A stretch of 30,581 bases of DNA from Oscillospiraceae bacterium (GCA_963628375.1 CAVGFB010000157.1:1-30581); one strand, 5' to 3'. Positions 1 through 30,435 are shown, counted from the first letter of the stretch. Numbers and translations: made by a program. Notes: generated by a model not told the origin, from the sequence alone.

Positions 1-945
1 GGACAAATCAAGTAGCTCAATAAAATACTTATAGTTCAAATAATTTATACAATCAAACAGATACTTATTTACAATTACTCTTAACAATTTAACATCTTTA
101 ATAAAAGAACAAATTTCATAAATTCTTGCATAATCGCTATTTCTGACCATTTGTTCAATTATTTTGTCTAATAATCTTTTGTTTGTAAGTACACCTGAAA
201 CATTTATATAGGAATTAAACAGTCCTACTAGGTCTTTTATTGTAAAATCTGCTGTAAAGAATTTATTGTTGCTTTCATTTATCGAAAAAATTAAATAACT
301 ATTTAGTTTTGCAGAGACTTGATTTTTATCTTTGATTGAAAACAGTTGACTAATATCATTTAAGTTCCCATTTTTAATTAAAGTCATCAAAAAAATAAGG
401 CTTATTGTGTCCTTGCCCACTTTCTTAAAAATTTCTTTAACGTTATTACTTAAAACTTTTATTTTTTGATTTTTATTAAAATATACTCCTGGAATCCTTG
501 AAATAGTATTCTTGAATATCGCATACTTATCGGCAGGATTGATAAATTCGTTGGCGTTAAGTTCTTTGTCATCTAATATAAAGTCTTTTGTTTCTATAAC
601 TTCAGCATTCTTAAACTTGTGTACTAAAGGCATGTTTTCAATATGCAAATTTATAACAACTTCTGTTTCATTTAATATGTTTTCAATAAGTTCTTTTATT
701 AGATTAGCTCTTCTTATGTCAGCCACAAACAAATTGTCAAAAACAACTAGGTTTGGTTTTTTCTGTAAAATAAATTTGGCAACTAATCCATTATCAAGAT
801 CTCGCATAAATTCTATTGAACTAGCATCTAATCATATAACATTTTTGTTGTTGTATACAACACTTGCATATTGTCTACATACTGACGTTTTTCCAAAAAA
901 ATTCGGCGAGATTAATATTCTCAGTTTGTTTCTGTTCATAAGCAT
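1..945 (-). CDS. P-loop NTPase domain protein (MalT-like N-terminus), 3' end runs off the window; true start may be 1042 across a frameshift
   Basis: Frame is open from ATG 945 to position 1 with one TGA (832-834, NVI-W-LDAS). Walker A-like SPNFFGKT and Walker B-like LVVFDN. Missing from the supplied ORF track. Confidence 0.7.
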
Positions 946-1216
946 TTTTCTTAAAATACTATCTCTAACGACATTGTTTTTTTTGTGCTTTTGCTGTGCT
1001 ATCGCTAATAGACAGAAAACTCTCTTCTAAAAAAGCATTCATTTTGACCCCATTCTTATTTATATTTCTTGAACGTGTAAGAATTTACACAAATTTTATT
1101 AACAATATAAAATCAAAAAATAAATAAAAATGTTCAATAATAAAAATAATTAAATTTTCTTAATATATTAAGAGCTGAACTGGTATTTTAAAGGATTGAC
1201 GGCTTCTTTGAAAGCT

Positions 1217-1990
1217 TTATTCTGCTGTAATTGTTATACTACGTAAAGTGTCAGCCAAATTTCCACTTTCGTTAGCTTTTGTATAGTCGTATAAAATGGA
1301 TGTTGACCATGTATATTTAGAATCATTTTTATAGGATGTACCAGTAAAGTTATAAGTTAAAATTGTTGCGGTTGTTCCGTCGCTTTCATAACTTGTGTAT
1401 TTAGTATTATCAAGAGGCAAGGAATTTGTATGCTCAATATTTTCAAGTCCAGCTTCTTTTAAGCTTTTATCTACAATTTTCTCGTTATTTATAATGTCTT
1501 TGAAACTTATATTCGCATATCCAAGCGATGTTATATCCCCTTTGAAACTAATCTTTAAAATGTTATCTGTATTGTCAGTATAAAAAATCACATTAGTAGA
1601 TATAGTTTTAGAGCCAGATTTTTCATTTGTCAAATCATAAGTATATTGTTTTGTAATATTGCCAACTCCAGACACATTATCTAATTTATTTAAATTAGCG
1701 CCTCTGCCAATAGCTTCAACTCCAATAGCTAATTTTTTATTTAGCATGTTGGTAAGATTAGGAATATATAGAATTTTTTCTGGAGTTTCTTTGTCCGATA
1801 CCTCAATTTTATAATTATTTTCTAACTGTACACCTGTGCCAGTAAGATCTTGTTGAGTCAAAATGTTTTCTTTTGTTTTATTGTATTGAAAGATTAAAAA
1901 ACCTAATATACAAAACAGCAAGAACACCCCAAACAAAACAAAAAAAATGGTTATTCTTTCATTTTTATTTAAATTATTTAAATTCTTCAT
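1217..1990 (-). CDS. Hypothetical protein with single N-terminal membrane anchor
   Basis: ORF ending TAA; hydrophobic ITIFFVLFGVFLLFCILGFLIF followed by a soluble domain. ATG 1990 preferred over the TTG at 2032. Confidence 0.7.
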   Translation of the reverse strand: MKNLNNLNKNERITIFFVLFGVFLLFCILGFLIFQYNKTKENILTQQDLTGTGVQLENNYKIEVSDKETPEKILYIPNLTNMLNKKLAIGVEAIGRGANLNKLDNVSGVGNITKQYTYDLTNEKSGSKTISTNVIFYTDNTDNILKISFKGDITSLGYANISFKDIINNEKIVDKSLKEAGLENIEHTNSLPLDNTKYTSYESDGTTATILTYNFTGTSYKNDSKYTWSTSILYDYTKANESGNLADTLRSITITAE

Positions 1991-2074
1991 TTCTTTATTG
2001 TTTAAAAGTATAACATACAGGCACAAAAGCAATTTCAGTAGTTATGATTTTTTGCTAATATTTTAAGGAGAAGA

Positions 2075-3661
2075 ATGTCAAGTTTAAAAAATAGAAGATC
2101 TGGAGTGTTAATGCCAATATTTTCTCTTCCGAGCAAATATGGCATTGGATCATTAGGAAAAGCAGCCTATAAATTTATAGATTTTTTAAATAAAGCAGGT
2201 CAAACTTATTGGCAAATTTTACCTATCGAGCAAACTGGTCCTGACAATTCTCCCTACCTAACTTATAGCTCTCGTGCTGGTAACGTAAAATTTATAGATA
2301 TAGATTTACTTATAGAAGATAACTATATTACTAAAAATGACCTAGATGAATGTGGCATTAAAATTTTAAACACACCTGAGTATTGTAAAATAAATTACAA
2401 GAACATAACAAAATCCAGAGACATTTTATTTAATAAAGTATTTGTTAAATTTTTTGAAAATCCTCCAAGTGATTACAACTCTTTTTGTAAAGAGAACAAT
2501 AGCTGATTAGAAGATTTTGCTCTGTTTATGACAATAAAAAAAATACAACAAGAAAAATTTAACAATATAGAGAGTACTAAAATTCAACAATGACCAGATA
2601 AGTTCAAATATAGAAATGAAAAAGCACTTATGGAACTTCACCAGAACTATTCTAAAGAAGTAGAATATTTTAAGATGCTTCAGTATTTCTTTTTTAAGCA
2701 GTGAAACATGTTAAAAGAATATGCACATAAACAAGGCGTCAAAATAATTGGTGATATTGCTTATTATGTATCAGTAGATAGTAGCGATGCATGAACAAAC
2801 CCTCACATTTTTAAAATTGACAAAGATTTTACATTTAAAACATATTCTGGTTGCCCACCAAACAAAAGCAATAATAAAAAAAGCAAGGGTCAGGTTTGAG
2901 GAAGCCCTGTTTATGACTGAGAGTATCTAAAATCATCTAATTATAATTGATGGATTTCACGTCTAAGAGACGCTCTCAATCTCTATGATGTTATAAGAAT
3001 TGACCATTTCAAAGGATTTGAGAGTTATTACTGTATTGATGGTAAAACTATGGATCCTAAAACTGGCGTTTACAAGCCTGGGCCAGGACTTGGCTTTTGA
3101 AAAATAGCAGCAAATGAGCTTAATTTTAAAAATATAAGTGACATGCCTATATTTGTTGAAGATTTAGGTCTTATAAATCAAAATTTAAAAAAACTTATTG
3201 CTGACACTGGCTTTTATGGAATTAAAGTCTTACAATTCGCTTTTAATAAAACCAATCATCCAGAAATATATAAAGGGCAAAACAGGCTAAAATCTAGTGA
3301 AATGTACTTGCCTCATAATTATCCTACCTCTTCAATCGCTTATGTTGGAACACACGACAATGACACTTTAATGGGATGAATTAACACAATAGATAAAGAC
3401 ATATTGCAAAATGCAAAAAATTATTTTGAAGAAAACGACATACACAAATTGTTTGATAAGATGCTGCTTTCTGTAATTAATTCAAAATCAAATATATGCA
3501 TTTTGTGTGTACAAGATTTGCTAAAATTAAATACGGAAGGTAGAATAAATGTACCAGGGACAATAGAAAATAATTGAACATGACAACTAAGTAAAAACCA
3601 ATTTAATATATTAGATCCTAAAAAATTATACGATTTGACAAAAAAGGCAAACCGTTTATAG
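2075..3661 (+). CDS. malQ: 4-alpha-glucanotransferase (amylomaltase, GH77), 528 aa under table 4
   Basis: RRSGVLMPIFSLPS, RIDHFKGF, VEDLG and YVGTHDNDT motifs. AAGGAG RBS. 11 in-frame TGA (e.g. S-W-LEDFA 2504, FKQ-W 2702, QV-W-GSPVYD-W 2897/2918, N-W-T-W-QL 3575/3581). Ends TAG. Confidence 0.95.
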
Positions 3662-3701
3662 ATATAAAATCAAAAGATAACAAACATAAATAAGGAGAAA
3701 C

Positions 3702-6065
3702 ATGAATAAAACTTTATCTGATGTTGCAAAAATTCTTGATAATACAATATTTCAATTTGACATACATGATTTGCATGTTGATCAACTTCATACAGTTTTA
3801 TCTAAGTCAGTAATTGACATTATTACACCTAATTGAAGACATTCTCAAGACCTTCATAACAAACAAAAAAGAGCATATTATTTTTCTGCTGAATACCTAA
3901 TGGGCAGAGCAATATATAACAACCTTTTTTGTAGCGGCCTTTTAGATGAGGCTAAAGAATTATTAAAAAAGGAAAACATAAACATTAACTGTTTTGAAGA
4001 AATCGAGGATGCGGCCCTTGGAAATGGAGGCCTTGGGCGCTTAGCTGCATGTTATTTGGACAGTGCAGCAACACAAAATATTCCACTTGATGGCTATGGA
4101 ATTCGCTATGGATATGGCTTGTTTAAGCAATCGTTTAAAAACGGTTTCCAGCACGAAAGCGTAGACAACTGAAGACGTCTTGGAGATCCATGATCATCTA
4201 GGCAAGAAAACCAAAAAGTTAAGGTTCACTTTCATAATGGTGATGTATGGGCAGTGCCATATGATATGCCAATCATAGGGCATAATACAGACCATGTCTC
4301 CACGCTTAGACTTTGACAAGCAGAGCCAATACATGAATTTGACTTTGGACTGTTTGACCAAGGTAGATATGACGAAGCAGTTTCAGAAAAAACTCAAACA
4401 GAAAATATCTCTCGTGTTTTATACCCAAACGACTCTAACGATCAAGGAAGACAGCTAAGACTAAAACAACAATACTTTTTCTGTTCTGCTAGCTTGCAAG
4501 ATATTTTACGTAAATATGAAGCCGAACATGGAAACAACTACAGCAAATTACCTGATTGTGTACAAATACAACTTAACGACACACATCCAACTATCTCTAT
4601 TCCTGAATTAATAAGACTGCTTATGGAAAAAGATGTTTCTTTTGAACAGGCTCTATATATTACTCAACATACTTTTAATTATACTAATCACACAATTATG
4701 GCTGAAGCTTTAGAAAAATGAGATGTTAAATTCATTAAAAATATTTCTCACAAAATAACAAGCATTATTAAAAAAATTAATGTTTATTATAATGAGGTCT
4801 TTGCTGCCCACGGTTTAACAAAAAAAGAAGATCTTAAAAATTTAAGTATTATACAAGGCAATACCTGCCATATGGCAAACTTGGCTTGTTGTGTGTCTTC
4901 TCACATTAACGGTGTAGCTAAACTTCACACCAATCTATTAAAAGAAAGTGTTCTAAGCGACTTTTACAAAATTTGGCCAGAGCGTTTTTTAAATGTTACA
5001 AATGGAATAACACAAAGAAGATGACTTGGAGTATGTAATCCTAAACTATCGGCTTTTATTACAAAGCTTCTAAAAACTGATAAATGATTAGAAGACCTTA
5101 AGCTCTTAGCTAAGTTAAAAAATTATGCTAACGATAATGATGTTATTGACGAATTTATTAAAATCAAAAAATCAAATAAAAAAGATTTAGCAAAGTATAT
5201 AAAAAACAAGGACAAGAAAATACTAGATCCTAACAGAATAGTAGATACTCAGGTAAAACGCCTTCATGAATATAAAAGACAGTTTTTGAACATTTTAACT
5301 ATATTAGAACTATATTTTGAAATTAAAGAAGGCAGCTTAACTGATTTTAAGCCAACAACATATATTTTTGGAGGCAAGTCTGCACCGGGCTATGTAAAAG
5401 CAAAGGCAATAATTAAAGTTATAAATGCAGTTGCAGACTTAATTAATTCAGACAAAGAAGTGAGCAAATATATTAATGTTATTTTTGTTTCTAACTTTGA
5501 TGTCAGTTATGCAGAAAAGATAGTTTCTGCTTCTGATGTTTCTGAACAAATTTCAACTGCAGGTACAGAAGCAAGCGGAACTGGAAATATGAAGCTCATG
5601 CTTAATGGTGCTGTTACATGTGGTACTTATGATGGTGCAAACATAGAAATTGTAAAAGAAGCAGGAGAAGAAAATAACTACATATTCGGAGCAAGGGTCG
5701 AAGATATCGAAAAAATTAAAAACACTTACAACCCAAGAAAACACTACCGTGAAACTCCTGGAGTTAGAAGAGTATTAGATGCATTAATAAATGGAACACT
5801 AAGTGATGATGGTTCTGGGCTTTTCGAGATGCTGTATGGTGGAATGATGCACCAAGATCAATATTTTGTTTTTGAAGACTTTAGAGCATGTCTTGAAGCA
5901 AAAAAACAAATTAATTTTGATGCAAAAAATGAACGTGAATTTGCAAAAAAGCAGTTTATGAATATGTGTAGTGCAGGAAAGTTTTCATCTGACAGGGCAT
6001 TATTAGAATACGCAAACAATATTTGACATATTGAAAAGTTAGCTGCTTTTGAAAGCAAAAAGTAA
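3702..6065 (+). CDS. glgP: Glycogen/maltodextrin phosphorylase, 787 aa under table 4
   Basis: LGNGGLGRLAAC, QLNDTHP, KRLHEYKRQ and PLP-site EASGTGNMK. AAGGAG RBS. 8 TGA (LRL-W-QA 4314, EALEK-W 4719, TQRR-W-L 5022, NI-W 6024). Ends TAA. Confidence 0.95.
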
Positions 6066-6102
6066 AATCACTTTAAGTTATATAATTAGATAAAATTTTT
6101 TT

Positions 6103-6125
6103 GGGGCGTAAAATGCCCCTTTTTT
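6103..6125 (+). terminator. Probable rho-independent terminator after malQ-glgP
   Basis: GGGGCG-taaaa-TGCCCC hairpin followed by a T run. Confidence 0.65.
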
Positions 6126-6152
6126 ATAATTAAATTAAATACAAGGATCAAA

Positions 6153-9053
6153 ATGGACAATAAAAATAAAGTTGAAAAATATAAGATTACAAAAGAGTTA
6201 GCTTCTTTTTATGATCACATTAAAACTGAATGAATTGGTGAAGTTTCTTCTTGAAGTTATGAACTAAAACATAAAAAATCTTTAGCTAAAATATTACTGT
6301 TACACAACAATGATATTGAAAAATCTTTTACAATAGGCTTTAAAACCCCTCCTAAAGATAGTACTGGAGTGTTTCATATTATTGAGCACAGTGTGCTTTG
6401 TGGTTCAAAAAAATTCCCATTAAAAGAACCTTTTGTTAACTTGATTAAGTCTTCCATGGCAACTTTTCTTAATGCTATGACCTTTGACGATAAAACTATC
6501 TATCCTGTTGCAACAACAAATGAGAAGGATCTATACAACTTAATGCAAGTCTACCTTGACGCTGTTTTCTTTCCGAATATATATAAAAATAAAAATATTT
6601 TTTATCAAGAGGGTGGCCATAAAACAGTTGACGAATCTAATAAACTTAATTTTAGTGGAGTTGTTTACAATGAAATGTGCGGTAATTATTCCAGTACAGA
6701 AAATGTTTTATACGAACATGTAATGAGACAGTTATTTCCAAATACTTGTTACGCTAACGTATCGGGCGGAAGACCAGATGCTATTAAAAATCTAAGTTAC
6801 CAAGAATTTCTTGAAGAACATAATGCCCACTATAATTTATCAAATGCTTATATTGTCTTATACGGAAATTTTAATATAAATAATATGCTAAAGTTTTTAG
6901 ACGCTGAATATCTGTCAAAAAAGGAAGAAATTGACAAATGAAGGCAAGAATCAAATTCTGGTGTCAAGTTACATACTTATTCTACTAGAAGTATTAATAC
7001 ACAATCTTTACATACGGCTTCACATAAAAAAGTGAAAATGAAAACAAGCCCTGATAATACTGACGCTGTTTTAGGTTATGTTATTGAACGTGATCACACA
7101 AAAATAATTGCAACAAATATTTTACTAGATGTTATTGCTGGATCTGAATCCTCTCCATTAAAAAATAAACTTTTAAAAACGGGATTATTCGCAGATATTA
7201 ATTTTGAATTGGAAGACAGTATTTGCCAACCTGTAGTGTTTGTTAATTGTAAAAAAACAAAGGCAGGCGTTGCAGAAACTCTCAATAAAAAAATTTCATC
7301 CATATGCACTGACTTGTTAAAAGATGGGTTAGACCACACGTTAATTGAAGCGGCAATTAAACGTTTTGAATTTTTGTTAAAAGAAAACAGTCCTGAATAC
7401 TCTCACGGAATTGACGCAACAATAAGTTTAATGTCTACTTGATTATATGACGACTCACAATCAACTCTCGGGCTCAAATATAATGATGTTATAACGTTTT
7501 TAAAAAAGAATATAAAATTTGGTTACTTTGAAAAACTTCTTTGTTCTTTATTTATTGAAAATAACTTTTTTGCTAGTGTTGAAATTGTTCCTACAAAAGA
7601 TACACAAGAAAACGCAGTATACGCTACAGAATCTGAAAAATTAGCAATTGAAAGTATTTGTAGAGATCTTGATCTATGGCAACAAACGCCAGACACGAAA
7701 GAAGCAGAAAATAGTCTTCCTGTTCTAACGTTAAACGATATTGAACAAAATAAACCTTTGCCTTCTTATAAAAAACAAGATAACTTTTTAATTCATGACA
7801 CTAAAATTGATGGAATTACTTATACAAATTTTTACATAAAAGTAAACTCTATAGACTTTGAAGATGTTCCTTATTTATCTTTATTAGCAAGTTTATTTTC
7901 TAAGTTAGACACACAAAATCACAATGCACTTGAACTTGATACCATAATAACTAATCATTTAGGTCATTTAAACTTTAGTCTGCATGTCTCTAATGTATAC
8001 AAGAAAAACAATAAGCCAGACTTATACTTTGTTATAAAAACTTCTTGTTTAGACAATGAATTAAACAACTTAACTGATATTTTAGAAGAAATTCTATTTG
8101 CTACAAAATTTGAAAATAAAGAGCTAATCCGTTCTCTTATTAAACAGCAAATTGCATTTATAGAACAAAAGTTTATAGAAAGTGGGCATATATCTTCTTT
8201 TAATAGAGCATTGTCATATTTTTCACCATCAGCAGTTCTTAACGAGAAAGCTTATGGAATTGAATACTATAAATTTATAAAAGACCTTGACCTAAATTTT
8301 GAAACCAATTTTAATGATTTGTCGTCTAAATTTTTTAATCTAAAACAAAAACTTTTGGACGCAAGTTTGTTGGTCTCCTATTCTGGAGAGAATGAAAGCT
8401 TAAAAATTATTAAATCTTGAGTTGATACTAATTTCAAGCAGAATGAAAATTCATCCTCTTTAAATATTCCTCGCCCTAAAAATTTAAATGAAGCTTTTAT
8501 TATTCCTTCAAATGTTGGATATGCATCATGTGTTGTTGATTTAAATATTTTAGATTATTTAAAAGGAGCAATGAAAATTGTCTGTTCAGCTATTACTTAT
8601 GATTATTTGTGAAACGAGGTACGAGTAAAAAATGGAGCTTACGGCTCACAGGCTATGCATACAAAATTTGGTAGTTTGATTTTCTACTCCTACAGAGACC
8701 CAAACTTCAAAAACACTTATTCTGTATATGATAATGTTTCTAATTGGTTAGCGAATTTTGATATAACTAAAGAGCAGTTAGATCTCTATATTATTAGTAC
8801 TATAGGCAAGCTTGATAAACCTAAAACTGTAAGAGAAACAATAAGCCTACTGGACCATAACTATCTTTCAAAATACCCTAATACTTTAATTAATGTTATA
8901 AGAACTCAAGCTCTTAACACCAAACTGAGTGATATAAAAACAATTGCTAACGCTTTAAGCAAAATAAACAATAACCAATACAGGTGCATGTTTAATTCTG
9001 AAGAAACCTGTAAATACTCTGAAATGAATGTAAAAAATATATTTTCAATATAG
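6153..9053 (+). CDS. Insulinase-family M16C zinc metallopeptidase (PreP/Cym1-like), 966 aa under table 4
   Basis: Inverted zinc motif HIIEH(SVLCGS), FLNAMTF, GVVYNEM and YL-W(TGA 8610)-NEVRVKNGAYG. 6 TGA join four ORF-track fragments in one frame. Ends TAG. Confidence 0.92.
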
Positions 9054-9095: not shown

Positions 9096-10049
9096 ATGAA
9101 GTGTCACAATTGTAATACAAACAACGAGGACAATCTTATCTTTTGCAAAAATTGTGGAGAGAGACTTGTTGATACAAGCGAAGAATTAAAAATCAATAGC
9201 TCGGAAAACAAAAATTCTAATACTTCAAGTTCTAACTCAGCAAACAGTAATGCATCAAAATCAAATTCCCAAAAAAAATTAAAAGGTAAAGACTTTTTTG
9301 GTCGTGCATTCTGTGACGTTAGAAACACAGATAAAGTTGTAAAAAACACATTCTTATTAGGTCTTTTAAATGCAATTCCAATTCTTAACTTTGTTGTAAC
9401 AGGCCTAGCACAAAATTGAGGCTATGACGATTTAAACAAAAACGCAGGCAACGAGTTACCCAGACCGTTTGTTTCAAAAAAGAATTTTGTTCAAGGATTT
9501 TACGAGTTTTTAACAGTAATTTTATACGGTCTTGTATGGTTTCTAGCTTTTAGATTGGTCGATATGATATTTGACAAAGTACCAGTTATTGACACAATAG
9601 TATCTATTGTACTAATATGTGCTTCGTTCATATGGTTTAGTATTGTGTGCTACGCAGCACAAAGAAGCAAAATTAACAATACTCTTTCGAATTCTTTCAG
9701 TATAAAAAAGATATTTAAAACTTGGAAATCTGGTGGTGCTGATCTATTTTTGTGCTATTTTGTTCCGCTTGTTGTTTGCTTTTCATTTGTGCTTTTGCTT
9801 ACAGTTTTTATACTAATTGCCTTTTTGCCATCTATAGTAACTTTATGAGAAGTTTTAAACTATGTTCCAGCTTCATACTTTTACACAAACTCTAATGCAT
9901 TATCTCAATTGAATCAATTCCTTCCTTCTATTGGATCTCTTTCAATCTCTGTAATTTTATTGCTAATTGTGTCAGGAGTTTTTGGAACATTTGAAAAATT
10001 ATGAAGATATAGAGCGATTAGCTATTGAATTAAAGAATACGAAAAATAA
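9096..10049 (+). CDS. Zinc-ribbon + DUF4013-like multi-pass membrane protein
   Basis: N-terminal CxxC...CxxCG, Ser/Asn-rich linker, several TM segments. AGGAGG RBS. TGA at 9417, 9846, 10002, 10026. Ends TAA. Confidence 0.75.
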
Positions 10050-11280: not shown

Positions 11281-11365
11281 TTTTCCTCCTTTATTTATTA
11301 GGCTTTTTATATTATACAACAACTAACACGAGTAATACTTGACACAATTTTAAGATTTTATTAAA

Positions 11366-11385: not shown

Positions 11386-11476
11386 GGAGAGGTGGCTGAG
11401 CGGCTGAAAGCGGCGGTCTCGAAAACCGTTTTGCCATACAATGGTAACGAGGGTTCAAATCCCTCCCTCTCCGCCA
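11386..11476 (+). tRNA. tRNA-Ser, anticodon CGA
   Basis: Acceptor stem GGAGAGG/CCTCTCC + G + CCA, anticodon arm GCGGT-CT-CGA-AA-ACCGT, long variable arm, T-loop GTTCAAATC. Confidence 0.95.
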
Positions 11477-19059: not shown

Positions 19060-19066
19060 ATGTAGC

Positions 19067-19075
19067 ATTATAACA
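19067..19075 (-). promoter_or_regulatory. Extended -10 promoter, probably giving a leaderless mRNA
   Basis: TGTTATAAT followed by 7 nt and then ATG 19059, with no SD sequence. Confidence 0.55.
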
Positions 19076-20113: not shown

Positions 20114-20818
20114 TTAATCTAACTTTGCTCTGTCAATGTGATCTCATGGGTGCCCACAGCACATTTTTCCTTCTTTGCACTTTCCTCTCACACAGCTAGG
20201 GCCTGCATCCATAAAAATAAATGGTGCAGTTGGTCTAACAAGCTCTAACATTTTTTTTGCAAGATCTCTGATTTCCCATTGTGCTCTATTGCAACATCTA
20301 ACACTAAAGAAGTGTAAGAGTTCTCTAATATTCATTGTTACAACAATTTTGGTCTCACAGGCATTTGGGAGAAGGTATCGAGCATCTTCTTTTGGGACGT
20401 CTAATTCATTAAGTTTTGTGTAAGCTTCCTGACATGCTTCAATACAAGAATCAAAAACCTCTTTTGCTTCTTTGTTGTTTTTGATGCTTTCTGGAATAAT
20501 TACATCTAACTCTTTGTCTGCTTTTACATATCTTTGAGACTGTTGATTGTAACTTGCCATTCTATGTCTTACTAGCTGGTGTGTTAAAGCTCGACTTACT
20601 CCTTCAATAGCAAAAGTATATGTTGCATGTTCTAAAGTAGAATTATGACCGCTCTCTAGGATAGTAGATAAAATTTTTTTAGCCTGCTCTTCTTTCATGT
20701 TCTCTACAAGATCAGCCGCTCCCACCTTACTATAACATAGACGAGCTGCAGTGGCAACAGCACGAGCAGGATCTTTTGTGTAGTATAGAAGATCAACTTT
20801 AATGTTTGAGTATGCCAA
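20114..20818 (-). CDS. thyX: FAD-dependent thymidylate synthase
   Basis: H-x-S-x-LEH, SRALTHQLVRHR, SQRY, EDARYLLP and AQWEIR motifs. AAGGAG RBS with TTG start. Under table 4 it reads through TGA 20144 to TAA 20114. Confidence 0.95.
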
Positions 20819-20921: not shown

Positions 20922-21782
20922 ATGTTTGGATTTATAAAACCCAACTACAAAAAATTAAGTGATAAAGAAAAGCTTCGCTACCAAGAGGTGTACTGTGGGC
21001 TATGCTATTCTCTAAGAGATAATTATGGCCAAATTGCAAGACTTGCTTTAACTTATGATTTAACCTTTTTAATTCTGTTTTTAAGTTCTTTATATGAACC
21101 TAAAGAAAAAAAACAGACTTGTAAGTGTATCTTTAAAAACAAAAAATTAAAAGATGCAAATGTTGCTCTAAACAAATATTCCGAGTATGCAGCAGATATG
21201 ACAATTTTGCTCACGTATTACAAATTTTTTGATGATAAAGTTGATAAAGACCATAAAATCAGAGGAATAATTGGAGAAGGTTTAATTTCAAAGTCTTTCG
21301 AAAAAGCAAAGGCAAAACACCCAGATTCTGAGTCTGCCATTAAAGAAATCATGAATCATATTGTATCTCTTGAGAATAAAGATCATCCAAGTGCAGATGA
21401 AATTTCTAAATTGTTTGGAATTTTACTTGCTACCGTTTTTTGTCCTAATGATGATATTTGAAAAACCCAGTTGGGGAAGTTTGGTGCAAATTTAGGTAGA
21501 TTTATTTATTTTATGGATGCAGCTCTTGATTTAAAAAAAGACAAAAAAAATGGTTGTTATAATCCTTATTTAGAAATGTCCTATAAAAAATCACAAATAA
21601 AAGATGATCTATGTATTCTTGCAGGAAGAACGACACAGGAGTTTGAAAAGTTTCCCTTATTTAAAGATATTAATATTTTAGAAAATATATTATATGAAGG
21701 AGTATGAACGTCTCTAAACCAAAACTTTTCAAAGAAATTAAAAAATAGATTTCGTCTAAGAAAAAATAATAACAATATTTAA
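20922..21782 (+). CDS. DUF5685-family protein
   Basis: MFGFI...YCGLC...LTYDLTFL, LGRFIYFMDA, YNP and NILYEGV-W(TGA 21705). Second TGA at 21459. Confidence 0.8.
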
Positions 21783-21783: not shown

Positions 21784-22545
21784 ATGGATCCTTATAAAGT
21801 ACTTGGAATATCAAAAGATGCCACAATGGCAGAAGTAAAAAAAGCCTACAGAAAAAAGGCTCGTGAGAATCATCCTGATTTAAATCCAGGTGATAAAGAT
21901 GCAGCTGAAAGAATGAATAAAATCAATGAAGCATATGACAGAATCACAAATCCTGACAAGTACGTTCAAGAAGATGCAAGAAGAGCTGCTGCTAATAGCT
22001 ATCGACAATCTGGAGGCGTATACCCTGGGTACGGTAGTTATAGACAAGGCGGGTCATCTTATTCATGATCTGGTTTTTATGGTTTTGATATGGATGACTT
22101 ATTCAACAATGCCCGTGCGTATTCTAAAAAAGTAGAGTTTTATATAGAAGCAGAGGAAACTGACTCAGGAATTATACTACAAGCAATAAGCGCGATTAAC
22201 TCAAAGAATTATGTTCTGTCATTAAAGCTTCTTAACACAATTGCCAAAGATCTTAGAGATGGTCGATGATTTTACCTTTCTGCAATTGCTAATTACTGTG
22301 AAGATAATTTAATAATTGCTAACGACCATATAAAAAAAGCAATGGAGTTTGATCCGTCTAATGAAAACTATAAAAAAGTGTCTGAGATTATTTCTTCATT
22401 TGGAAAATCTTATAGGCAATCAGGCAAACGAAGAGGCTTTAGTATAAGTACAATTGACCCTGGGCTTTGTTGTTGTGTATGTTTAGGTATTCAGATGTGT
22501 ATTGGTGGAAGTATAGGAATTCCTTGTAGAACGTTTTATTTTTAA
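21784..22545 (+). CDS. J-domain (DnaJ-like) protein with TPR-like region and Cys-rich C-terminus
   Basis: DPYKVLG...HPD...INEAYD J-domain, G/Y/S-rich linker, RDGR-W(TGA 22267)-FYLSA, MEFDPSN and LCCCVC tail. Starts 1 nt after the DUF5685 stop. Confidence 0.88.
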
Positions 22546-22997
22546 GGATAAACTTCTACAATGCCATTATCTTTAACCTTTATATTCATGCCATTTTTCA
22601 CGTAGTTTAAAAATTCACTTCCGAGCGAATCTATAACAGGCATTTTTACCTCTTCTAACCATACATCAGCTAAAATAGAACCAGCTGCTGCTAGAGAATC
22701 GATTTTTTTGCTAAATAGCATACAAGCAGGTTGAGACTTTAGTGCAACAGCACAATAAATAACAAAACCTCCAGTTGTTGAACCTATTGTTTCCGGTAAA
22801 CATAATGCGCTTCCAGCAAGAGGCTTATTGTATAAGTATGAATTGTTTTGATCGCCACACACTGCTTTTTTGTCCCCTTTTTGGAGAGCGCCTTGGAAGC
22901 TTGCAAGTGTGTTTAATCCATCCTTAGTTACAAGTGCTTTTGCTTCTATCTGGCCTTTTACTACAACTCTACCTTTAAATGTTTTCTTATTTGCCAT
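22542..22997 (-). CDS. Aconitase X small (swivel) subunit, DUF126
   Basis: FKGRVVVKG...LCLPETIGSTTGG...MPVID. Start overlaps the stop of the large subunit. Confidence 0.82.
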   Translation of the reverse strand: MANKKTFKGRVVVKGQIEAKALVTKDGLNTLASFQGALQKGDKKAVCGDQNNSYLYNKPLAGSALCLPETIGSTTGGFVIYCAVALKSQPACMLFSKKIDSLAAAGSILADVWLEEVKMPVIDSLGSEFLNYVKNGMNIKVKDNGIVEVYP

Positions 22998-24270
22998 TTG
23001 TGCCTCCAACTAAGATGTTTAAAATCTCTTCGTCCGTATAATAGCGTGCTGTTGTATAGGTTCTAAGCTTATTGCTGCTTGTAATAACAGGCATAGATTT
23101 ACATAAAGGATTGTTCATATACATTAATGGACAAATATAACTAAGTATTACACCTGCGTTCTTAAGTTTTTCGTAATAATCATTACTTTTTTTGAACTCG
23201 TTTATTACATCTGGACTTGCAGTAAACACTGTTTTTATTGAAACTTTGTTTTTGTTATTCTTTTTAAGACCCTCTGTTATTTTTTCTGTTCATTTTTGTA
23301 ATTGATTTAAACTCATATGAGGACAACCTAAAAAACAAAGTTTTGGTTTTGCGTTTTTTTTCTTTCAAATAACAGGATAATTTTTATACGTGTATTCTAA
23401 GAGTTCATCGTCAACAATAAGTGTTTTGTGCTCGTACTTTATAAGATCCCTTCCAAGTTTTTTTGCTTCTGGGGTGAGGTTGTCAATATGATAAAGCCCC
23501 ACTGCTCCATTACTTGCACACGCTGCTCCAAAGTCTTTTAAATATGTACATGTTTCATCGTTTAACTCATCTCCAATTCATTTATTTAAGCCTGTTATAT
23601 ATGGAACTTCGTCTGTAACAGCCATACCAATCGCACTTCCTAAAAGCTGAGCTTCAGGTTTTTTTGTTGTTCTAATCTCAACATGTCATGTTGCACGTCT
23701 GCCTTCATCTTTTAATAGTCCAAAATAAGGGACATATCCTAAAATCGACCCCATAAGATCAATAATTCCACTGTTTCTATTACATCTAGCACCTAATACA
23801 GAATTTGCATAAACAACAGCGCTACTCTCTGCTCAGCTCAAAATATCACCATATTTAGGAGTGTTTCCTACGTCGCTTAAATAACAAGTACATGTAAATG
23901 CGTCTTTGTTCTTTAGTCCAAAGCGATTTAGCGTGTCTTCATACTCATCTTGTAAGTTGTACATAAATTTCTTAAATATCAATTTTTGTAGTAGATTAGC
24001 AGGAACTTTTGGATCATAAGGGCGTGGATCAACACTAAATTTTTGTTTTGAAATTTCACCCGAATCTAAAATTTTACCTAGTAAATCATATACAGGCTTC
24101 ATTACTTTCATTCCAAATGACGTAACAAGATGGTTATATTTTGACGTTATAGGAACCATTTTTTCTGCACCAAAAAGCTCACCATAACGAACACAAGTCT
24201 CCATGACTTTTGCCATTACTTCCCCTTGTTTGCCATTTAGGATATCGGTTTGTTCTTTAGTTAAATTCAT
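22987..24270 (-). CDS. Aconitase X catalytic (Fe-S) subunit, DUF521, 427 aa under table 4
   Basis: TCTCY, LS-W(TGA 23833)-AESSAVVYANSVLGARCNR, GAVGLYHI, LGCPH and ITSSNK motifs. 5 TGA. Confidence 0.88.
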
Positions 24271-24288
24271 CTTAATACCTTTTATATT

Positions 24289-26352
24289 TTATATTTTCAT
24301 TGCAAGTCTATATGCGTCTCAAATTACTGTTCTTAAATTTCCGACTTTTTTACAATCACCGATTACATAAGTGTTCTTTCCAAGAGTAAATAACGGATTT
24401 GGAACATATCCCATAGAAGTTATAACAGCAGAACACATTATTTTATTTGCTTTATCGTTAATGTTTGTGTATATAACAGAATCGTCCCTAATTTCTCTAA
24501 GCTTACATTCCAAGTGAACTTTAATATCATTAAGCTTAAATCACTCCCTTAAATAAGAACTATTAGCAAGACAAACTCCTGTTTGTTTAATTAAATCATC
24601 CTCTGCTTCAATTATTTCTACATGTTTACCCTGCATAGCAAGCTCGTAGGCAATTTCACACCCTGTAATCCCTCCACCAACAATAACTACACGTTTTCCG
24701 ATTTTAGGGTTTTCTAATAAAAATTTACTAGCTTCTATGCCTTTTTGAAATCCTGGTATGTCTGGATAATATGTAGGTTTAGCTCCTGTAGCTACAACAA
24801 TTGGTTCGCCCTTAAAGTTTTTAGCATCAGTTTGTTTAATTTCACGTTTTAGTTTTACTTTAATATCGTTATCTTTAATTTGTTTTTTGTATCACTCAAG
24901 TAAATCACGTAAGGGCTGTTTGTAGCTTTCTTTACTAGCTGCTACAAAAACTCCACCTAAATAATTATTTTTTTCATAAATTATAGGATTGTGTCCTTTT
25001 TGTTTTAATCTTAAGGCTGCCTCCATTCCTGCAATTCCTCCACCAATAATATGAATACGACGAGACTCTTTAGTGGGAATAATAAAATGCCTGTCTCATT
25101 GCATAGTCTCAGCATTTACAGCACAACGCGCTAAGTGAAGGCTATCGCTTAGCTTTTGATCGTTTGGAACACCTTTGTAACTGCACATGTTAAAACATCC
25201 ATTGTGACACAAAATACAAGGTTTTATATCTTCTTTTCTGCCTTCAATTAGCTTAGTAATTCATGCTTGGTCGCTCAAGAAATTTCTAGCAAAACCTGCA
25301 GCTGTAATTTTGCCCTCTTTTATACTTTTGCTTGCTTCTTCAACATTTATTCTACCAGCACAAACTATTGGTTTTTTTGTATACCTACTAATGTCTTGTG
25401 CTTCTTTCAAATTACAATTCTCAGGCATATAAATTGGAGGATGAGACCAATACCATGCATCATATGTACCATTATCACAATTAAACATGTCATATCCTGC
25501 ATCATCTAAAAGTTTTATTGCTTTTATGGATTCGTTAAAGTCTCTACCTGCTTCTTTATAATCTTCACCCGGCAAGGCTCCAGATCTAAAGCCTTTAGTT
25601 TTACTCTCAACACTATATCTTAAAGACACAGGAAAGTCGTCCCCACATGCCTTTTTTATTTCTTGCACTATTTCTGTTGCAAATCTGTATTTATTTTCAA
25701 GTGAACCACCGTATTTATCAGTTCTTTTGTTTACATAATCAAGAGTAAATTGATCAAGCAAATAACCCTCATGAACGGCATGAACTTCAACTCCGTCTAC
25801 TCCAGCATCCATAAGTAGTTTTGAAGTCTTACCAAAAGCGTCAACATATTCTTTTATTTCTTTAACAGTTAACTCTCTAGAAGGTACCTTGTCAGACCAT
25901 CTGTTAGGAGCAGGAGAAGCACTTGCTGTAATCTTGTCTAAGTCCATTACTGGCTTTGAAAGTTTGCGTAATACCTTGTTAGTGTAGAGCTTTTCCATCA
26001 TGGGGCTTATAGTAAAACTTCTACCAAAACCTGCAGTCAACTGAATAAAAATTTTAGCTCCTGTTTTATGAAATTCTTCTAACCAAACCTCAAGATCTTT
26101 ATACATTTTTTTATTTTTATACAATCATGAACCAAACATTGGGTTTCATACTGGTTGACACCCCGGTAATACAAGACCACAATCGTGTTTTGCTACCTCA
26201 TATATAAACATAGCACCTCATTTATCAAAATGATGATGCTCCATTCATCCAAACAGGTTAGTTCCGCCCATACTTGTCATTACAAAACGATTTTTTATTT
26301 GGACTTTCCCAATTTTTCATGGTGTTAGTAGTGGTTCTAAGACTTTATCCAT
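24289..26352 (-). CDS. Old-yellow-enzyme/2-enoate reductase family NADH:flavin oxidoreductase (FMN, Fe-S, FAD), 687 aa under table 4
   Basis: KNRFVM, DGVEVHAVHEGYLLDQF, NKRTDKYGGS, PCILCHNGC Fe-S motif, two Rossmann motifs (IIGGGIAG, IVGGGITG). GGAG RBS. 10 TGA. Confidence 0.92.
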
Positions 26353-26387
26353 GTGACTCCTATGAATTTAAATTTTATTAGTTTATG

Positions 26388-26555: not shown

Positions 26556-26565
26556 GTTTTACACT

Positions 26566-29500
26566 CTACACAAAAGGAAGCTTTAGACTATTGAAAAAAG
26601 CTGTAATACTGCTCGTAAAATTCAACAACACATTTAAAACAGGTTCTGCTTCCTCATCTTTAGTATCAGTTTGCTGAGTGTCTGTTTTACTTGCTGTTTT
26701 ATCTATCGCTTTGTCTTTTGTATCTGCTTTTGTACTGCTTGATTTGTCTTGTTGAGTGTCAGGTATTAAACTATCAACGTTTTCTGAGTTTTTGCTTGCT
26801 GACTTATTGTCAACTTTTTGATTTGTATTTGTATCACTAGTTAAAAGTTTTTCATTAGAAGCTGATGTTAAACTTTGTGGAGTATCGTAATAAGTTACCG
26901 GTTGAGTTCTGGCAACTATCCCCATTCCGCAGTTTGTGTATGTGTTGCCATGTTCGTCGTATCATGTTGCGTTTTTCGTATTGCTACTATTAGATAGATA
27001 CGCTCCTGAACTGGTCAAGTCTTTATTTCAACCTTCTCCTAATTTGATTTTTTTTAGTCTAAATAGGTCTAGCATTCTATTATGGTTTGTTACCTGACTT
27101 GTATTAAAACTAGATAAATCTAATTCATATGAATAATTATTAGCGTAGTTTCCATAACCGACGAACATTTTTTCCATAGTTTTTACATTTGAGGTAGTTC
27201 ATTTTGATACATCTGGTACATCAACGAGTACTTTTGAGTAACAACCATAACAATCAAACATACTTTTAGTAGTTGTTAAGCTTGAAGTGTTTCATTTAGA
27301 AACATCAGGAACTACACTTGATGAAATTCTTTCTCCATAGGCACCAAACAGCTGCTCCATATTTTCAACTTTAGAGACATTTCATTTAGAAACATCAGGA
27401 ACTTTATCTAAATTCTCTGATGACGCACCATAAAATCAAAACAAATAAGACATATTAGTTACCTTAGAAGTGTTTCAATTAGAGACATTAGGGACAGAAT
27501 TGAAAGATGTTTTTCTTCGTGCAAAACTTTTAAACATAGAATCCATGTTTGTTACTTGTGAAGTGTCTAGATATTCAAAACCTGAGATATCTGACACATT
27601 CATGAAATTATTAAACATAAAGGCAGTACTTGTAAGTCCACTATAGTTTTTAAAACTTTCATTAATTGCAACATTTGTAGTTGTGCTTCTAACTCCGTCT
27701 CATTTTCAATTACTAGCTTGTGTAGCAGCTGTAGGAATTTCATATACCGTATGCCCTTCTGCAGTATGTGAAGCTTTCTGGTAGTCATAAGTTAAAGTAA
27801 GAGAAGTTCCGCTCAAGTATGCATAGGCATCAGGTGGTAAATAATCATAATATGTTACAACATCAGAAGAAAGCCCTGTTCCTACAGGTAAAGTTTGAGA
27901 TGTGTACGTAGTTTTTCCTTGATCGTATCATGTTTTATCAGTTTCTCCAGATGAATTAGTAAGCCCAATAGAACCTAAATTTAATGTAAATGTTTTTGAA
28001 ATTTTAATAGATTTTAACTTTATTCCACTTAATGCTAACAAATAATCACCTACGTTTGTTATGTTGGTTGTATTAAAAGTAGACAAGTTTAAACATTCAA
28101 AGCTTTTATTTTGACCATAACCTGCAAATATGCTTGCAATATTAGTAAGAGATGACGTGTCTCATTTTGACACATCAGGAACAGAACTTAAAGTTTGAGA
28201 GCTATAACCATAACCACTAAACATGCCTGTCATTTTTGTTACGTTTTTTGTTGTTCAGTCTTCTACATTAGGTACTATATTTAAATCTTCAACTTGATAA
28301 CCATAATTAGTAAACATGTATGACATGTCTGTAACGTTAGTTGTATTTAAGTTTTCAAAACCTTCATGGCTTACCACCTTTTGAAAATCATAAAACATAT
28401 AAGCGGTACTCCTTAGCTCATTATAGTTTTTAAAGCCAGTATCTATCTTAACCTTGGTAAAAGATGTTCTATCTTCTGTACCTCATCATTCACTCGCTTT
28501 AGTAGCAGCTGTAGGAAGTTCATATACAATATCATGTGAAGATTTTTTTGTATCATATATAAGCACAAGAGATGTTACACCACTTTCGCTTGTGTCTTTA
28601 TAACCATAAGCTTCTGCAAACTCTGCTTTGTTGTTGGAACTTTTACCTGTATATTTCCCGTCTGTATCATAAGCCTTACAGAAAATTTCAGCCCCTAAAT
28701 CTTCTTGTGTAACTGTGTAGGTGTCTCCTTCTGTTAACTGTTGTGTTTCACCTGATAACGTTCTATACCAAGTAAATTTTACTGTTACCCCTTCAGGTAC
28801 GTTTGTAGCAGTAGGTTTTAATGTATCGCCTGTTTTTACAATAATATTAGTGTCGCTCTCGTTTATTTTTACAACCATATCGTCCGGAAACACTTTATAA
28901 ACAAAAACTTCTTTGCTTGAGACGTCTGATACGTAAAGACCTGTTGAATCACTTACTTTTACTATAATTTTATATCCTACATCTGAATCGGTTACTGTAT
29001 AGTTGTCGCCTTCTGCTATAGAAGTTTCCTCACCTTTACTGTCTACTCTATATCAAGTGTATTTTGCAGTTGCATCTTTAGGGAAGTTAGATAAATTAAT
29101 TCCTAAATTATCACCTGCCACAATCTCTTTTCCTTCTTGAGGTAGCTTGATTGAAATTGTTGTATCTGTAGGGAATGTTTTATGAACTAAAACAGGATCG
29201 CTTTCTATATAAGAATAATAATTACCTAGCTCATCATATACCTTCAAAATGAGGTCATTACCAGCGTCATCATTAGTTACTGTGTAGTTTTTTTCTTCTC
29301 CTACTAAAGTTTGTTTTCCTTCTGTGTCAACTCTATATCATTGATATTTTGCAACTGCATCAGAAGGAAATTTATCTAATTCGCAACTCAAACTATCACC
29401 TGGTACAATATCTTCTGCTGCTTTTGTTGGTTTAATATTAACTGTCGCATCTACAAAAGTTTTATAAACAAAATTTTTCTCGCTTACAACTTCTGTTGTA

Positions 29501-30435
29501 TACGTACTTGTAGAGTCTGAAACTTTAACTATAATATTAAACGCTTCATCTCCTGATGTCACAGTATATTTTTCACCTTCACTAAGTAAAGTTTCATTTC
29601 CATCTTTATCAACCTTGTATCATTTAACGTTAACAGTTGCATCACTAGGAAAATTAGATAATTTAACACTTAATACATCACCTGCAAATACGCCATTTGG
29701 ATTAGGTTTAACAACTTCAACTTTGGTATCGCTTGGGAAAGCTCGTTCTTTATTAATTTCAATTTTATAAAAGCTTTCAATTTCAGAATTATTTTTCGCC
29801 TTCTCGATTAATGAAGCTGGCATAACGTCACAATTAAGTTTACCTTCATAAGAAGAATTACTTGAAACTTCTGTGCCTATTGCATCAGAAAAGAAAGACT
29901 TATATTCTTCATCGGTTGTAATATTTTCAATCTTTAAAGTATACTTTGTACTATTTACAATTTCAAACTTATTGTCTAAGATTGTTCCTGATTCGTCAAA
30001 TTTCAAATAAGAAGAAGTTTCAATACCTTCTGTTTCAGATTTGCCGTTGTCAGCTGCATTAGCAACAATTGTTTTTGTACCATAAACTCCAAAAGACACA
30101 ACTAAACATAGAGCAAAAATGCTTAAAGTTTTATTTTTTATTTTGCCTGTTTTGTACAAATATACAAGAAGCGCAATAAGACCAACTGCAAAAATTCCCA
30201 ATATTATCGGAAAAAAGTTAAACGCTCCAGTTGATGATGACGTGCTAGCATCAATTACTACACTGTCCCCACTTCCACTAGATACAAGCTCTAATGTAAG
30301 GCTTCCTGTAATGCTTTCACTCGTTGCAAATGCGTGCATAGGCAACATAACGCCACAGCACATGAATGCAAAAATAAAAACTCCTAAAACTTTTGCTATA
30401 TTGTTCTTTAATAAATTCCCGATTTTACTTTTCAT
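26566..30435 (-). CDS. Large BspA/DUF285-type leucine-rich-repeat surface protein with four Ig-like repeats, 1289 aa under table 4
   Basis: Single frame with 17 TGA, AGGAGG RBS and TAG stop. Signal peptide, four ~95-aa repeats, two modules of VPDVSK-W-NTSxVTNMxxMF repeats, and a D/K/T/S-rich tail. Confidence 0.9.
28620..29739 (-). repeat. Four diverged tandem ~94-95-aa Ig-like repeats
   Basis: Approximate consensus FP...GD.L....FP.DA....WY.V.....YTVT..D.G. The Trp codons lie at 29620, 29338, 29053 and 28768 (spacing 282/285/285 nt). Confidence 0.85.

Follow-up and report, generated by a model that had tools for sequence, protein, structure and literature searches.

The closest described precedent for the genetic code of the DNA considered here is the reassignment of the stop codon UGA to tryptophan (NCBI table 4) in the Eggerthellaceae, reported by Parks et al. 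(Microb Genom, August 2026; PMC13462651) for 34 genomes from mammalian stool, of 0.81-1.92 Mb and 31.3-39.9% guanine plus cytosine (GC). According to the main text and supplementary text of that paper, to which, figures aside, our comparison extends, the code-4 genomes have lost prfB, which encodes release factor 2 (RF2), and carry a tRNA-Trp(UCA), whilst secA and prfB are adjacent in standard-code relatives; a standard-code genus lies between the two code-4 genera, named Gorillivita and Equivita. The Discussion proposes that tRNA(UCA) arose as a duplicate of tRNA-Trp(CCA), the fact that the tRNA(UCA) genes have different neighbours (noted also in the legend of Fig. S3) is taken as support for two independent reassignments, and an ambiguous UGA intermediate in the ancestor is considered in the Results and Discussion. 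Our subject is a stretch of 30,581 nucleotides (hereafter the window; CAVGFB010000157.1:1-30581 of assembly GCA_963628375.1, filed as Oscillospiraceae bacterium), in which UGA is almost certainly a fixed tryptophan codon, together with the tRNA(UCA) gene that is predicted to read it in the same genome.

Mycoplasmatales and insect endosymbionts (also table 4) share with this genome, as Table 2 of PMC13462651 indicates, UGA as tryptophan, loss of RF2, a tRNA(UCA) in most members, a reduced AT-rich genome and host association. In Gracilibacteria and Absconditabacteria (table 25) UGA is likewise a sense codon and RF2 is lost, the residue being glycine there and, on the evidence below, tryptophan here. 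TGA-recoded gut phages carry TGA suppressor tRNAs which, like the tRNA(UCA) described here, have a UCA anticodon and are assigned tryptophan as the inserted residue (preprints by Borges et al., 10.1101/2021.08.26.457843; Seki et al., 10.1101/2025.10.30.685624).

The window is the whole of contig C157 of an assembly (G000) of 1,044,520 bases in 158 contigs, 88% complete and of 32.0% GC, which the genome collection places alongside 338 others in a single family. For UvrA, the nearest named loci belong to Eggerthellaceae, Eggerthella, Collinsella and Coriobacteriaceae assemblies (58-66% identity), and secA of G000 is followed by an actinobacterial-type mIHF-gmk pair. On the family label of the collection, the UvrA neighbours and the text of PMC13462651, G000 is placed in the Eggerthellaceae (Actinomycetota), as what appears to be a small gut bacterium and not a mollicute. 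It agrees with the published code-4 genomes in family, in size (about 1 Mb), in UGA at conserved tryptophan positions, in the loss of prfB, in the presence of both a tRNA(UCA) and a tRNA-Trp(CCA), and in TAA as the main stop codon (77% of long frames, against a mean of 75.6% there); its 32% GC best fits the genus Gorillivita (about 32%), and no difference in kind was apparent.

In-frame TGA codons and coding density

Under the standard code (table 11) the window yields 31 frames of at least 100 amino acids, few of them long, and with TGA taken as a residue it yields 20 clear genes that cover 93% of its length. Seventeen of these genes carry a total of 84 in-frame TGA codons, as against 18 TGG, with TGA:TGG ratios of 11:2 in malQ, 8:2 in glgP and 17:1 in the gene for a large surface protein. 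A preliminary description of the window, made from its sequence alone, had given exactly these three ratios and had counted about 85 TGA codons in 18 of 21 genes; the additional gene and codon are accounted for by a possible open reading frame (ORF) of 103 amino acids. It had also stated that every complete gene ends in TAA or TAG, which holds for all 19 complete clear genes (14 TAA, five TAG), a result that is in part built in, TGA having been left open when the frames were called. The endings are nonetheless backed independently, by Pfam matches that extend to the ends of the profiles and by five TGA-ending genes of a standard-code sister genome (see below) whose counterparts in G000 end in TAA or TAG. 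The further claim that fragments on either side of a TGA stay in one frame was borne out, since frames are never shifted across a TGA and the products match full Pfam profiles. When read through TGA, 16 of the 20 products pass the Pfam curated cut-offs, with profile coverage of 1-464 of 465 for MalQ, 2-713 of 713 for GlgP and 2-190 of 191 for ThyX; three have no match, and one has weak zinc-ribbon matches only. The features of the window are as follows, with those supported by Pfam marked.

1-945, minus strand: gene of unknown family, running off the window start; 1 TGA, 0 TGG; no Pfam match
1217-2032, minus strand: 271-amino-acid protein of unknown family; 0 TGA, 1 TGG; a 35% identical orthologue lies beside malQ in the sister genome G019
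2075-3661, plus strand: malQ, 4-alpha-glucanotransferase (GH77); 11 TGA, 2 TGG; Pfam
3702-6065, plus strand: glgP, glycogen/maltodextrin phosphorylase; 8 TGA, 2 TGG; Pfam
6153-9053, plus strand: M16C (PreP-like) metallopeptidase; 6 TGA, 2 TGG; Pfam
9096-10049, plus strand: zinc-ribbon membrane protein; 4 TGA, 3 TGG
10135-11322, minus strand: iron-containing alcohol dehydrogenase; 1 TGA, 0 TGG; Pfam
11386-11476, plus strand: tRNA-Ser(CGA)
11512-11823, minus strand: possible 103-amino-acid ORF, a candidate gene only (the twenty-first of the preliminary description); 1 TGA
12143-13774, minus strand: MATE-family transporter; 3 TGA, 0 TGG; Pfam
13807-14619, minus strand: 270-amino-acid membrane-anchored protein of unknown family; 2 TGA
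14625-17558, minus strand: uvrA; 4 TGA, 0 TGG; Pfam
17608-18054, minus strand: GtrA-family membrane protein; 5 TGA, 1 TGG; Pfam
18070-19068, minus strand: family 2 glycosyltransferase; 2 TGA; Pfam
19083-20078, minus strand: diacylglycerol/lipid kinase (YegS-like); 0 TGA, 0 TGG; Pfam
20114-20818, minus strand: thyX, flavin-dependent thymidylate synthase; 1 TGA, 1 TGG; Pfam
20922-21782, plus strand: DUF5685 protein; 2 TGA; Pfam
21784-22545, plus strand: DnaJ-domain protein; 2 TGA; Pfam
22542-23009, minus strand: aconitase X swivel-domain subunit; 0 TGA, 1 TGG; Pfam
22987-24270, minus strand: aconitase X (AcnX) catalytic subunit; 5 TGA, 0 TGG; Pfam
24289-26352, minus strand: FMN/FAD oxidoreductase (2,4-dienoyl-CoA reductase-like); 10 TGA, 4 TGG; Pfam
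26566-30435, minus strand: 1289-amino-acid surface protein with DUF285 repeats; 17 TGA, 1 TGG; Pfam

The same pattern was found throughout the genome. Stop-to-stop frames of at least 300 codons make up 18.4% of G000 under table 11 and 71.8% with TGA open, compared with 19.8% and 27.6% in controls in which TAG or TAA, respectively, was opened instead; a coding-density comparison of this kind had been proposed in the preliminary description, and tables 4 and 25 open the frames equally. Among the 508 non-overlapping frames of at least 250 codons, 451 carry TGA, with 2026 TGA codons as against 466 TGG, such that TGA makes up 81% of tryptophan codons if so read; the 508 frames end in TAA 390 times and in TAG 118 times. 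All 76 contigs of at least 5 kb with long frames carry in-frame TGA, and the signal is therefore not a binning artefact. TGA outnumbers TGG in 74 of the 76, the other two being contig C151 and the small contig C2.

This pattern is far beyond chance. That the codons are selenocysteine codons, or marks of pseudogenes or sequencing errors under the standard code, has a vanishingly small probability: more than two thousand in-frame TGA codons in 451 of 508 long frames are far above any selenoproteome, and pseudogenes or errors sit badly with frames that are never shifted and with full-length profile matches. What speaks for selenocysteine is the label 'SeC(tca)' that ARAGORN gives to the tRNA(UCA) of G000 and the true tRNA-Sec genes found in many relatives of G000; the label follows from the anticodon only, and the tRNA itself, as described below, is not of the tRNA-Sec type.

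Identity of the residue encoded by UGA

MalQ and GlgP were aligned with 106 and 113 database homologues, respectively, from which the closest hits (13 for MalQ at 48-54% identity and six for GlgP at 68-74%) had been excluded because they are possibly relatives translated with table 4 by assumption. Seventeen of the 19 TGA columns hold tryptophan in at least 98% of homologues (10 of 11 columns in at least 104 of 106 sequences for MalQ, and seven of eight in 113 of 113 for GlgP), against a mean tryptophan share of 0.2-0.7% at other positions of these proteins; the remaining two columns hold phenylalanine in 62 and tryptophan in 41 sequences, and tryptophan in 78 of 113. The MalQ and GlgP motifs in which the preliminary description had recognised conserved tryptophan proved to be of this kind, with tryptophan in 104-106 of 106 homologues at the W-G-x-P-x-Y-D-W and N-W-W / N-W-T-W sites of MalQ, and in all 113 at the LRLW, EALEKW and RRWL sites of GlgP. 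Its reading of the TGA in the WAESSA motif of AcnX fared likewise, as this position aligns with tryptophan in the solved structures 7cnr and 7d2r.

UvrA was aligned with 76 of 80 standard-code loci from other phyla, four having been dropped for want of an uninterrupted frame. Its four TGA columns hold tryptophan in 67 and 64 of the 76 sequences, tyrosine in 41, phenylalanine in 19 and tryptophan in 14, and phenylalanine in 61 and tryptophan in eight. For the three proteins together, tryptophan is the commonest residue in 20 of 23 TGA columns.

A comparison with standard-code DNA of the same family was made through the sister genome G019 (1.5 Mb, RF2 present, no in-frame stops), using 25 orthologue pairs on one of its contigs. 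Of 76 aligned TGA codons in G000, 61 are TGG in G019, and conversely 61 of 95 TGG codons in G019 are TGA in G000, with 14 still TGG. TGA is the stop of five of the 25 G019 orthologues; in each case the gene of G000 closes with TAA or TAG no more than a few residues from that position. The alignments, a kind of check that the preliminary description had put forward, and the codon comparison agree with tryptophan.

Glycine, as in table 25, is the residue that coding density alone leaves equally open, and one of the 76 TGA codons does align to GGC in G019. It is nevertheless highly improbable, being commonest in none of the 23 columns and present in UvrA in only two of 76 sequences at a single TGA column, with most of the TGA codons matching TGG in the sister genome. 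The tRNA that would read UGA in G000 has A1-U72 and G73, as does the tRNA-Trp of the same genome; tRNA-Gly has G1-C72 and U73. The preference of the preliminary description for tryptophan over glycine or selenocysteine is upheld by columns that are tryptophan or otherwise aromatic and never dominated by glycine, and by a tRNA(UCA) that does not fit tRNA-Sec.

Decoder tRNA and release factors

ARAGORN identified 34 tRNAs and a tmRNA in G000, with tRNA-Trp(CCA) on contig C115 and a tRNA(UCA) at C125:563-637. A search for such a tRNA had been suggested in the preliminary description, and the gene found has the features of a tryptophan acceptor: it is 75 nucleotides (nt) long, folds as a normal cloverleaf with a 7-bp acceptor stem, a 5-nt variable loop and the anticodon loop CUUCAAA, and resembles tRNA-Trp(CCA) in A1-U72, C2-G71, G3-C70, G73 and an encoded CCA end. 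It scores 64.2 bits against the general tRNA family RF00005 and does not match the tRNA-Sec family RF01852, the best score of which anywhere in G000 is 44 bits, at another tRNA and below the 47-bit cut-off. The tRNA(UCA) gene is not adjacent to that of tRNA-Trp(CCA); in mycoplasmas the two stand in a tandem UCA-CCA arrangement. Despite the 32% GC of the genome, its tRNA set includes many anticodons with C at position 34 (CGC, CCG, CTG, CTC, CCC, CAG, CGG, CGA, CGT and CAC), which fit a GC-rich ancestry and look like a leftover of it; in keeping them, and in belonging to another phylum, G000 is unlike the Mycoplasmatales and endosymbionts. In the standard-code sister, G019:C6:15597-15689 matches tRNA-Sec at 64.2 bits against the cut-off of 47, which contrasts with the statement in the Discussion of PMC13462651 that the whole clade is without selenocysteine genes.

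G000 encodes a single protein with a release factor domain, and this is release factor 1, as judged from its best match (NCBIfam prfA), its P-K-T motif and the prmC gene that follows. By comparison, the prfB score exceeded the cut-off in all of 40 relatives, and the gene was present in 318 of the family's 339 genomes and in 213 of the 215 of high quality. It is missing from all members of just two of the 64 genera, namely that of G000 (one species in the collection) and a genus designated g63 (genomes G195 and G196), in which secA of both genomes carries in-frame TGA.

The locus from which prfB is missing could be located by synteny. Contig C11 of G019, syntenic with both the window and contig C125 of G000, has the order M16C, glgP, malQ, 271-amino-acid gene, large gene, secA, prfB, mIHF and gmk. 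On C125 of G000, secA (645-3584, minus strand) and mIHF (86-421, minus strand) enclose no prfB; the 224-bp gap between them (C125:422-644), which is the site of prfB in G019, holds, on the other strand, the tRNA(UCA) gene (563-637, plus strand), 7 nt from the secA stop and a further 141 nt from mIHF. In G195 and G196, secA is followed directly by mIHF and gmk, with no tRNA in the gap and the tRNA(UCA) gene elsewhere. No convincing prfB remnants were found in the secA-mIHF gaps of G000, G195 or G196. As this conserved locus has been assembled without prfB, the absence of RF2 from G000 is not an assembly gap, and the loss of RF2 that the preliminary description had proposed to look for is found. 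The only gene for a UGA decoder in G000 thus sits where the UGA terminator was encoded. A scan upstream of tRNA(UCA) showed a sigma-70-like site that stops 10 nt short of the gene, but with two such sites found against 1.4 expected it is no evidence of a promoter; no sequencing runs containing the secA-tRNA(UCA)-mIHF stretch were listed, nor any from RNA.

A second, foreign tryptophanyl-tRNA synthetase (TrpRS) was not found in the five genomes searched: four had one trpS match each over cut-off, G196 had none, and the weaker trpS hits in the genomes searched represent another synthetase.

That UGA might be ambiguous, mostly tryptophan and a stop at some sites, with RF2 either unassembled or replaced by another termination route, draws on the 88% completeness of the genome and on the ancestral ambiguous intermediate considered in PMC13462651. 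There is only a slim chance of it, given a conserved prfB locus that is assembled and empty, a UGA codon that is the majority tryptophan codon, and TAA or TAG at the ends of the G000 orthologues of all five TGA-ending sister genes. The claim that the reassignment is fixed rather than leaky is sustained by the 81% share of TGA among tryptophan codons, with prfB gone and tRNA(UCA) present.

Several observations weigh against reading UGA as tryptophan throughout this genome. Contig C151 (20,046 bases) has 49 TGG and 20 TGA codons in its ten long frames, and may be a recent acquisition, a highly expressed gene set or a foreign contig. Three of the 23 tested TGA columns are mainly phenylalanine or tyrosine, and 15 of 76 TGA codons align to codons other than TGG in G019 (TTT four times, TAT and CAT twice each, and seven single codons including GGC); both fit variable aromatic sites without proving tryptophan. 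In AcnX only two of five TGA sites align with tryptophan in solved structures, the second in one structure, and the other three lie in variable or unaligned stretches. The assembly being 88% complete and in 158 contigs, gene absence is soft except at the secA-mIHF locus. Lastly, the support is drawn from sequence only, and the charging of tRNA(UCA) with tryptophan is a prediction.

Taken against these points, the evidence makes it almost certain that UGA is a tryptophan codon (NCBI table 4) in this Eggerthellaceae genome of about 1 Mb and 32% GC, and a fixed one, because TGA makes up 81% of its tryptophan codons. The single resident TrpRS would charge tRNA(UCA) with tryptophan, this tRNA would read UGA and probably UGG too, and translation would no longer terminate at UGA, former TGA stops having presumably been replaced by TAA or TAG. 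Such a reassignment is known as table 4 and, since August 2026, in the same lineage (PMC13462651); the size, GC content and features of G000 match the clade described there, and the reassignment is correct but already known.

Relationships of the tRNA(UCA)

The tRNA-Trp(CCA) of G000 is highly conserved in the five family genomes checked, with 100% identity in G017 and 99% in G009, G019, G195 and G196. The tRNA(UCA) of G000 is identical to it at 58 of 73 aligned positions, and to the tRNA(UCA) of G195 and G196 at 65 of 75. Of 60 positions compared in stems and loops, all three tRNAs agree at 37, and at 13 the two UCA tRNAs agree and differ from the CCA form; among these 13 are A24, which faces U11, and the pairs 6-67 and 27-43, both of them compensated. 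Three positions are private to the tRNA(UCA) of G000 and five to that of g63. Both UCA tRNAs also share a 1-nt deletion in the D loop. In its acceptor stem the G000 tRNA(UCA) equals the resident tRNA-Trp at five of seven pairs.

In G195 and G196 the tRNA(UCA) gene is 96 nt long and, between its anticodon arm and its T arm, has an extra arm (loci L107 and L106: c1448-1543). A scan of metagenomes with the shared 32-nt pattern of the D and anticodon arms retrieved six more tRNA(UCA) genes (L142-L147), of 93-96 nt and all with the arm. In unconstrained folds, five of the seven long forms adopt a five-armed cloverleaf in which the extra arm has a 5-bp stem and a 7-nt loop, N-U-C-C-A-A-A, that is, the anticodon loop of tRNA-Trp(CCA). 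The G000 tRNA(UCA) has no extra arm; since its relatives in G195, G196 and six of six metagenome loci have one, G000 appears to carry a member of this family that has lost its hallmark.

The same 32-nt pattern had no matches in a collection of viral contigs, and looser patterns found the family there. A UCA anticodon arm followed by TCCAAA occurs at 58 loci, 44 of them with a called tRNA(UCA) of 93-100 nt (39 distinct), though the collection may contain some misfiled bacterial fragments; many of the viral loci lie in contigs of 60-230 kb, beside arrays of other tRNAs. With the anticodon arm alone fixed there are at least 119 loci, and among the matches listed are 51 distinct tRNA(UCA), 36 long forms with the extra arm and 15 short; TCCAAA stands in the extra arm of 22 of the 36 long forms among these matches, and about five more have near variants. 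Among the long tRNAs with TCCAAA (45 distinct sequences), the 5-base flanks of this motif pair completely with each other in 34 and at four or more positions in every case, with 36 different stems represented; shuffling the partners gave a mean of 2.9 fully paired arms and a maximum of nine in 500 trials. Stems so varied and yet paired so far above the shuffled level indicate that the hairpin is conserved by compensation.

The D arm provides a second signature of the family. Allowing up to two changes, GTGTAATGGTAGCA (with U11-A24) occurs in 39 of 75 distinct long viral tRNA(UCA), in none of ten phage or metagenome tRNA-Trp(CCA) and in seven of 113 other tRNAs; the tRNA(UCA) of G000 has a D arm of this type with U11-A24, in combination with the UCA anticodon arm. 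The D, anticodon and T arms of the G000 tRNA are 85-90% like those of many tRNA(UCA) in phage contigs. When body and T arm are compared, the tRNA(UCA) of G000 is less similar to its own tRNA-Trp(CCA) than to 47 of 87 tRNAs from phages or metagenomes, a comparison in which only the viral tRNAs are independent because the six from metagenomes had been selected on that body. On sequence similarity, which here rests on some 70 positions, the body of the G000 tRNA(UCA) resembles opal-suppressor tRNAs borne by phages more than it does the resident tRNA-Trp(CCA). Within the family the phage-type pattern occurs in three of 339 genomes, G000, G195 and G196, which are exactly the members of the two genera that are without RF2 throughout. 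Judged by these alignments, the tRNA(UCA) genes of the two code-4 genera are homologous to one another and of a kind encountered elsewhere in phage contigs.

Two contigs, L159 (viral) and L142 (metagenome), have extra-arm tRNAs with a G000-type acceptor, and next to these lie tRNA arrays or an HNH endonuclease. The 14 ORFs beside the metagenome tRNA(UCA) genes mostly lacked matches in PHROGs and Pfam; one HNH endonuclease, one DprA/SLOG-like and one HslV-like protein were recognised, and these neighbours suggest, without proving, a phage setting. A 177-kb metagenome contig of 32% GC (L145) has an extra-arm tRNA(UCA) among His, Leu and Ser tRNAs and ORFs of about 170 amino acids on one strand, most without family matches, and resembles a very large phage's tRNA region.

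Two other origins were examined and rejected. A derivation of tRNA(UCA) from tRNA-Sec is contradicted by the fit of both the 96-nt and the 75-nt forms to RF00005 and not to RF01852, and by the tRNA-Sec of the family, which shares only the anticodon loop with tRNA(UCA). Gene conversion of the extra arm from a neighbouring tRNA-Trp(CCA) fails as a general rule: only in L143 (584-1003), where a tRNA-Trp(CCA) lies 250 nt away, do the extra arm and the anticodon arm of that tRNA agree at 17 of 17 positions, and the other ten distinct UCA/CCA pairs at shared loci match at 11-15 of 17, mostly in the invariant core.

Bacterial TrpRS relies on the anticodon and on G73. The extra arm could conceivably present a CCA loop to TrpRS so that a tRNA with a UCA anticodon is still charged with tryptophan, which we regard as rather unlikely. 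How phage TGA suppressors come to be charged is left open in the text of the preprint by Borges et al. (10.1101/2021.08.26.457843). The passages of Borges et al. and Seki et al. that were searched make no mention of an extra arm, and no description of one with a CCA loop was found in text searches of the literature, with some journals not covered and figures excluded.

The Hirsh UGA suppressor is a tRNA-Trp with the change G24A. Both UCA tRNAs and the phage family resemble it in having A24, paired with U11, where the resident tRNA-Trp(CCA) has G24; the G000 tRNA differs from this suppressor, which is mentioned in the text of PMC13092985, in that its anticodon itself is UCA.

Origin of the tRNA(UCA) in the code-4 genera

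For the origin of this gene we tentatively put forward, at somewhat less than even confidence, that the tRNA(UCA) is a captured member of the phage-borne opal-suppressor family and not a copy of the resident tRNA-Trp, and that RF2 was lost afterwards. A suppressor tRNA of the phage type would have entered the lineage either once, in a common ancestor, the standard-code genus having lost it later, or through transfer from genus to genus or from phages; RF2 would then have been lost from the same locus in each code-4 genus. In G000 the tRNA(UCA) gene would have ended up in the prfB gap, its acceptor stem would have turned host-like, and the extra arm would later have been shed. The G000 copy differs from phage tRNA(UCA) in being chromosomal, the only UGA decoder of its cell and host-like in its acceptor stem, and in lacking the extra arm that most of them have.

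An internal origin, by duplication of tRNA-Trp(CCA) and a C34U change independently in each genus, followed by fast divergence and with the phage copies exported or convergent, strikes us as possible but less probable. In its favour, the resident tRNA-Trp(CCA) is the closest of the 34 tRNAs of G000 to tRNA(UCA), the first three acceptor pairs and G73 are common to both, and the neighbourhoods of the tRNA(UCA) genes differ between the two genera, as found here and in the text of PMC13462651. Fast divergence is difficult to reconcile with a tRNA-Trp(CCA) that is 99-100% identical in the five genomes checked, and independent duplication with 13 of 60 derived positions and a D-loop deletion held in common, as against three and five private positions; the phage and metagenome tRNAs nearer in body and T arm, and a D-arm signature found in about half of the long phage tRNA(UCA) and in none of the ten phage or metagenome tRNA-Trp(CCA), are also unfavourable to it.

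Other features of the window

Several genes of the window merit separate mention. A sample of 24 other genera of the family yielded malQ and glgP from G019 alone, again as neighbours; the homologues that rank next (about 62% identity for GlgP, 42-45% for MalQ) bear names of Clostridia such as Acutalibacteraceae, Ruminococcaceae and Lachnospiraceae. Sequence relationships thus suggest that the malQ-glgP-M16C block (2075-9053) was acquired from Firmicutes before the genera of G000 and G019 split. A second MalQ paralogue of G000, at C16:6208-7677 on the minus strand, is 44% identical to that of the window and has ten in-frame TGA codons.

The two aconitase X subunit genes (22542-23009 and 22987-24270) overlap by 23 bases, and the nearest solved relatives of this enzyme are a DUF521 protein and cis-3-hydroxy-L-proline dehydratase. 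The surface protein encoded at 26566-30435 on the minus strand comprises four DUF285 stretches and repeated Ig-like modules, with 17 of its 18 tryptophan codons being TGA.

Discussion

The window is a confirmed instance of a published reassignment and not a discovery. Since frames of at least 300 codons make up only 18% of the genome under table 11, table 4 has to be used in translating this contig and the entire genome. Three results go beyond the text of PMC13462651, namely the position of the tRNA(UCA) gene in the prfB gap, the homology of the UCA tRNAs of the two genera, and their kinship to phage suppressor tRNAs.

These results on the tRNA side bear on the order of tRNA gain and RF2 loss and on whether the two Eggerthellaceae reassignments were independent, both left open in the Discussion of PMC13462651, and on the charging of phage TGA suppressors with tryptophan by host enzymes, which Borges et al. 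raise. The shared phage-type tRNA(UCA), the decoder in the prfB gap and the mimic of an anticodon arm offer leads on how a genetic code changes. If the capture proposed here is true, suppressor tRNAs of phages can seed permanent changes of the genetic code in their hosts.

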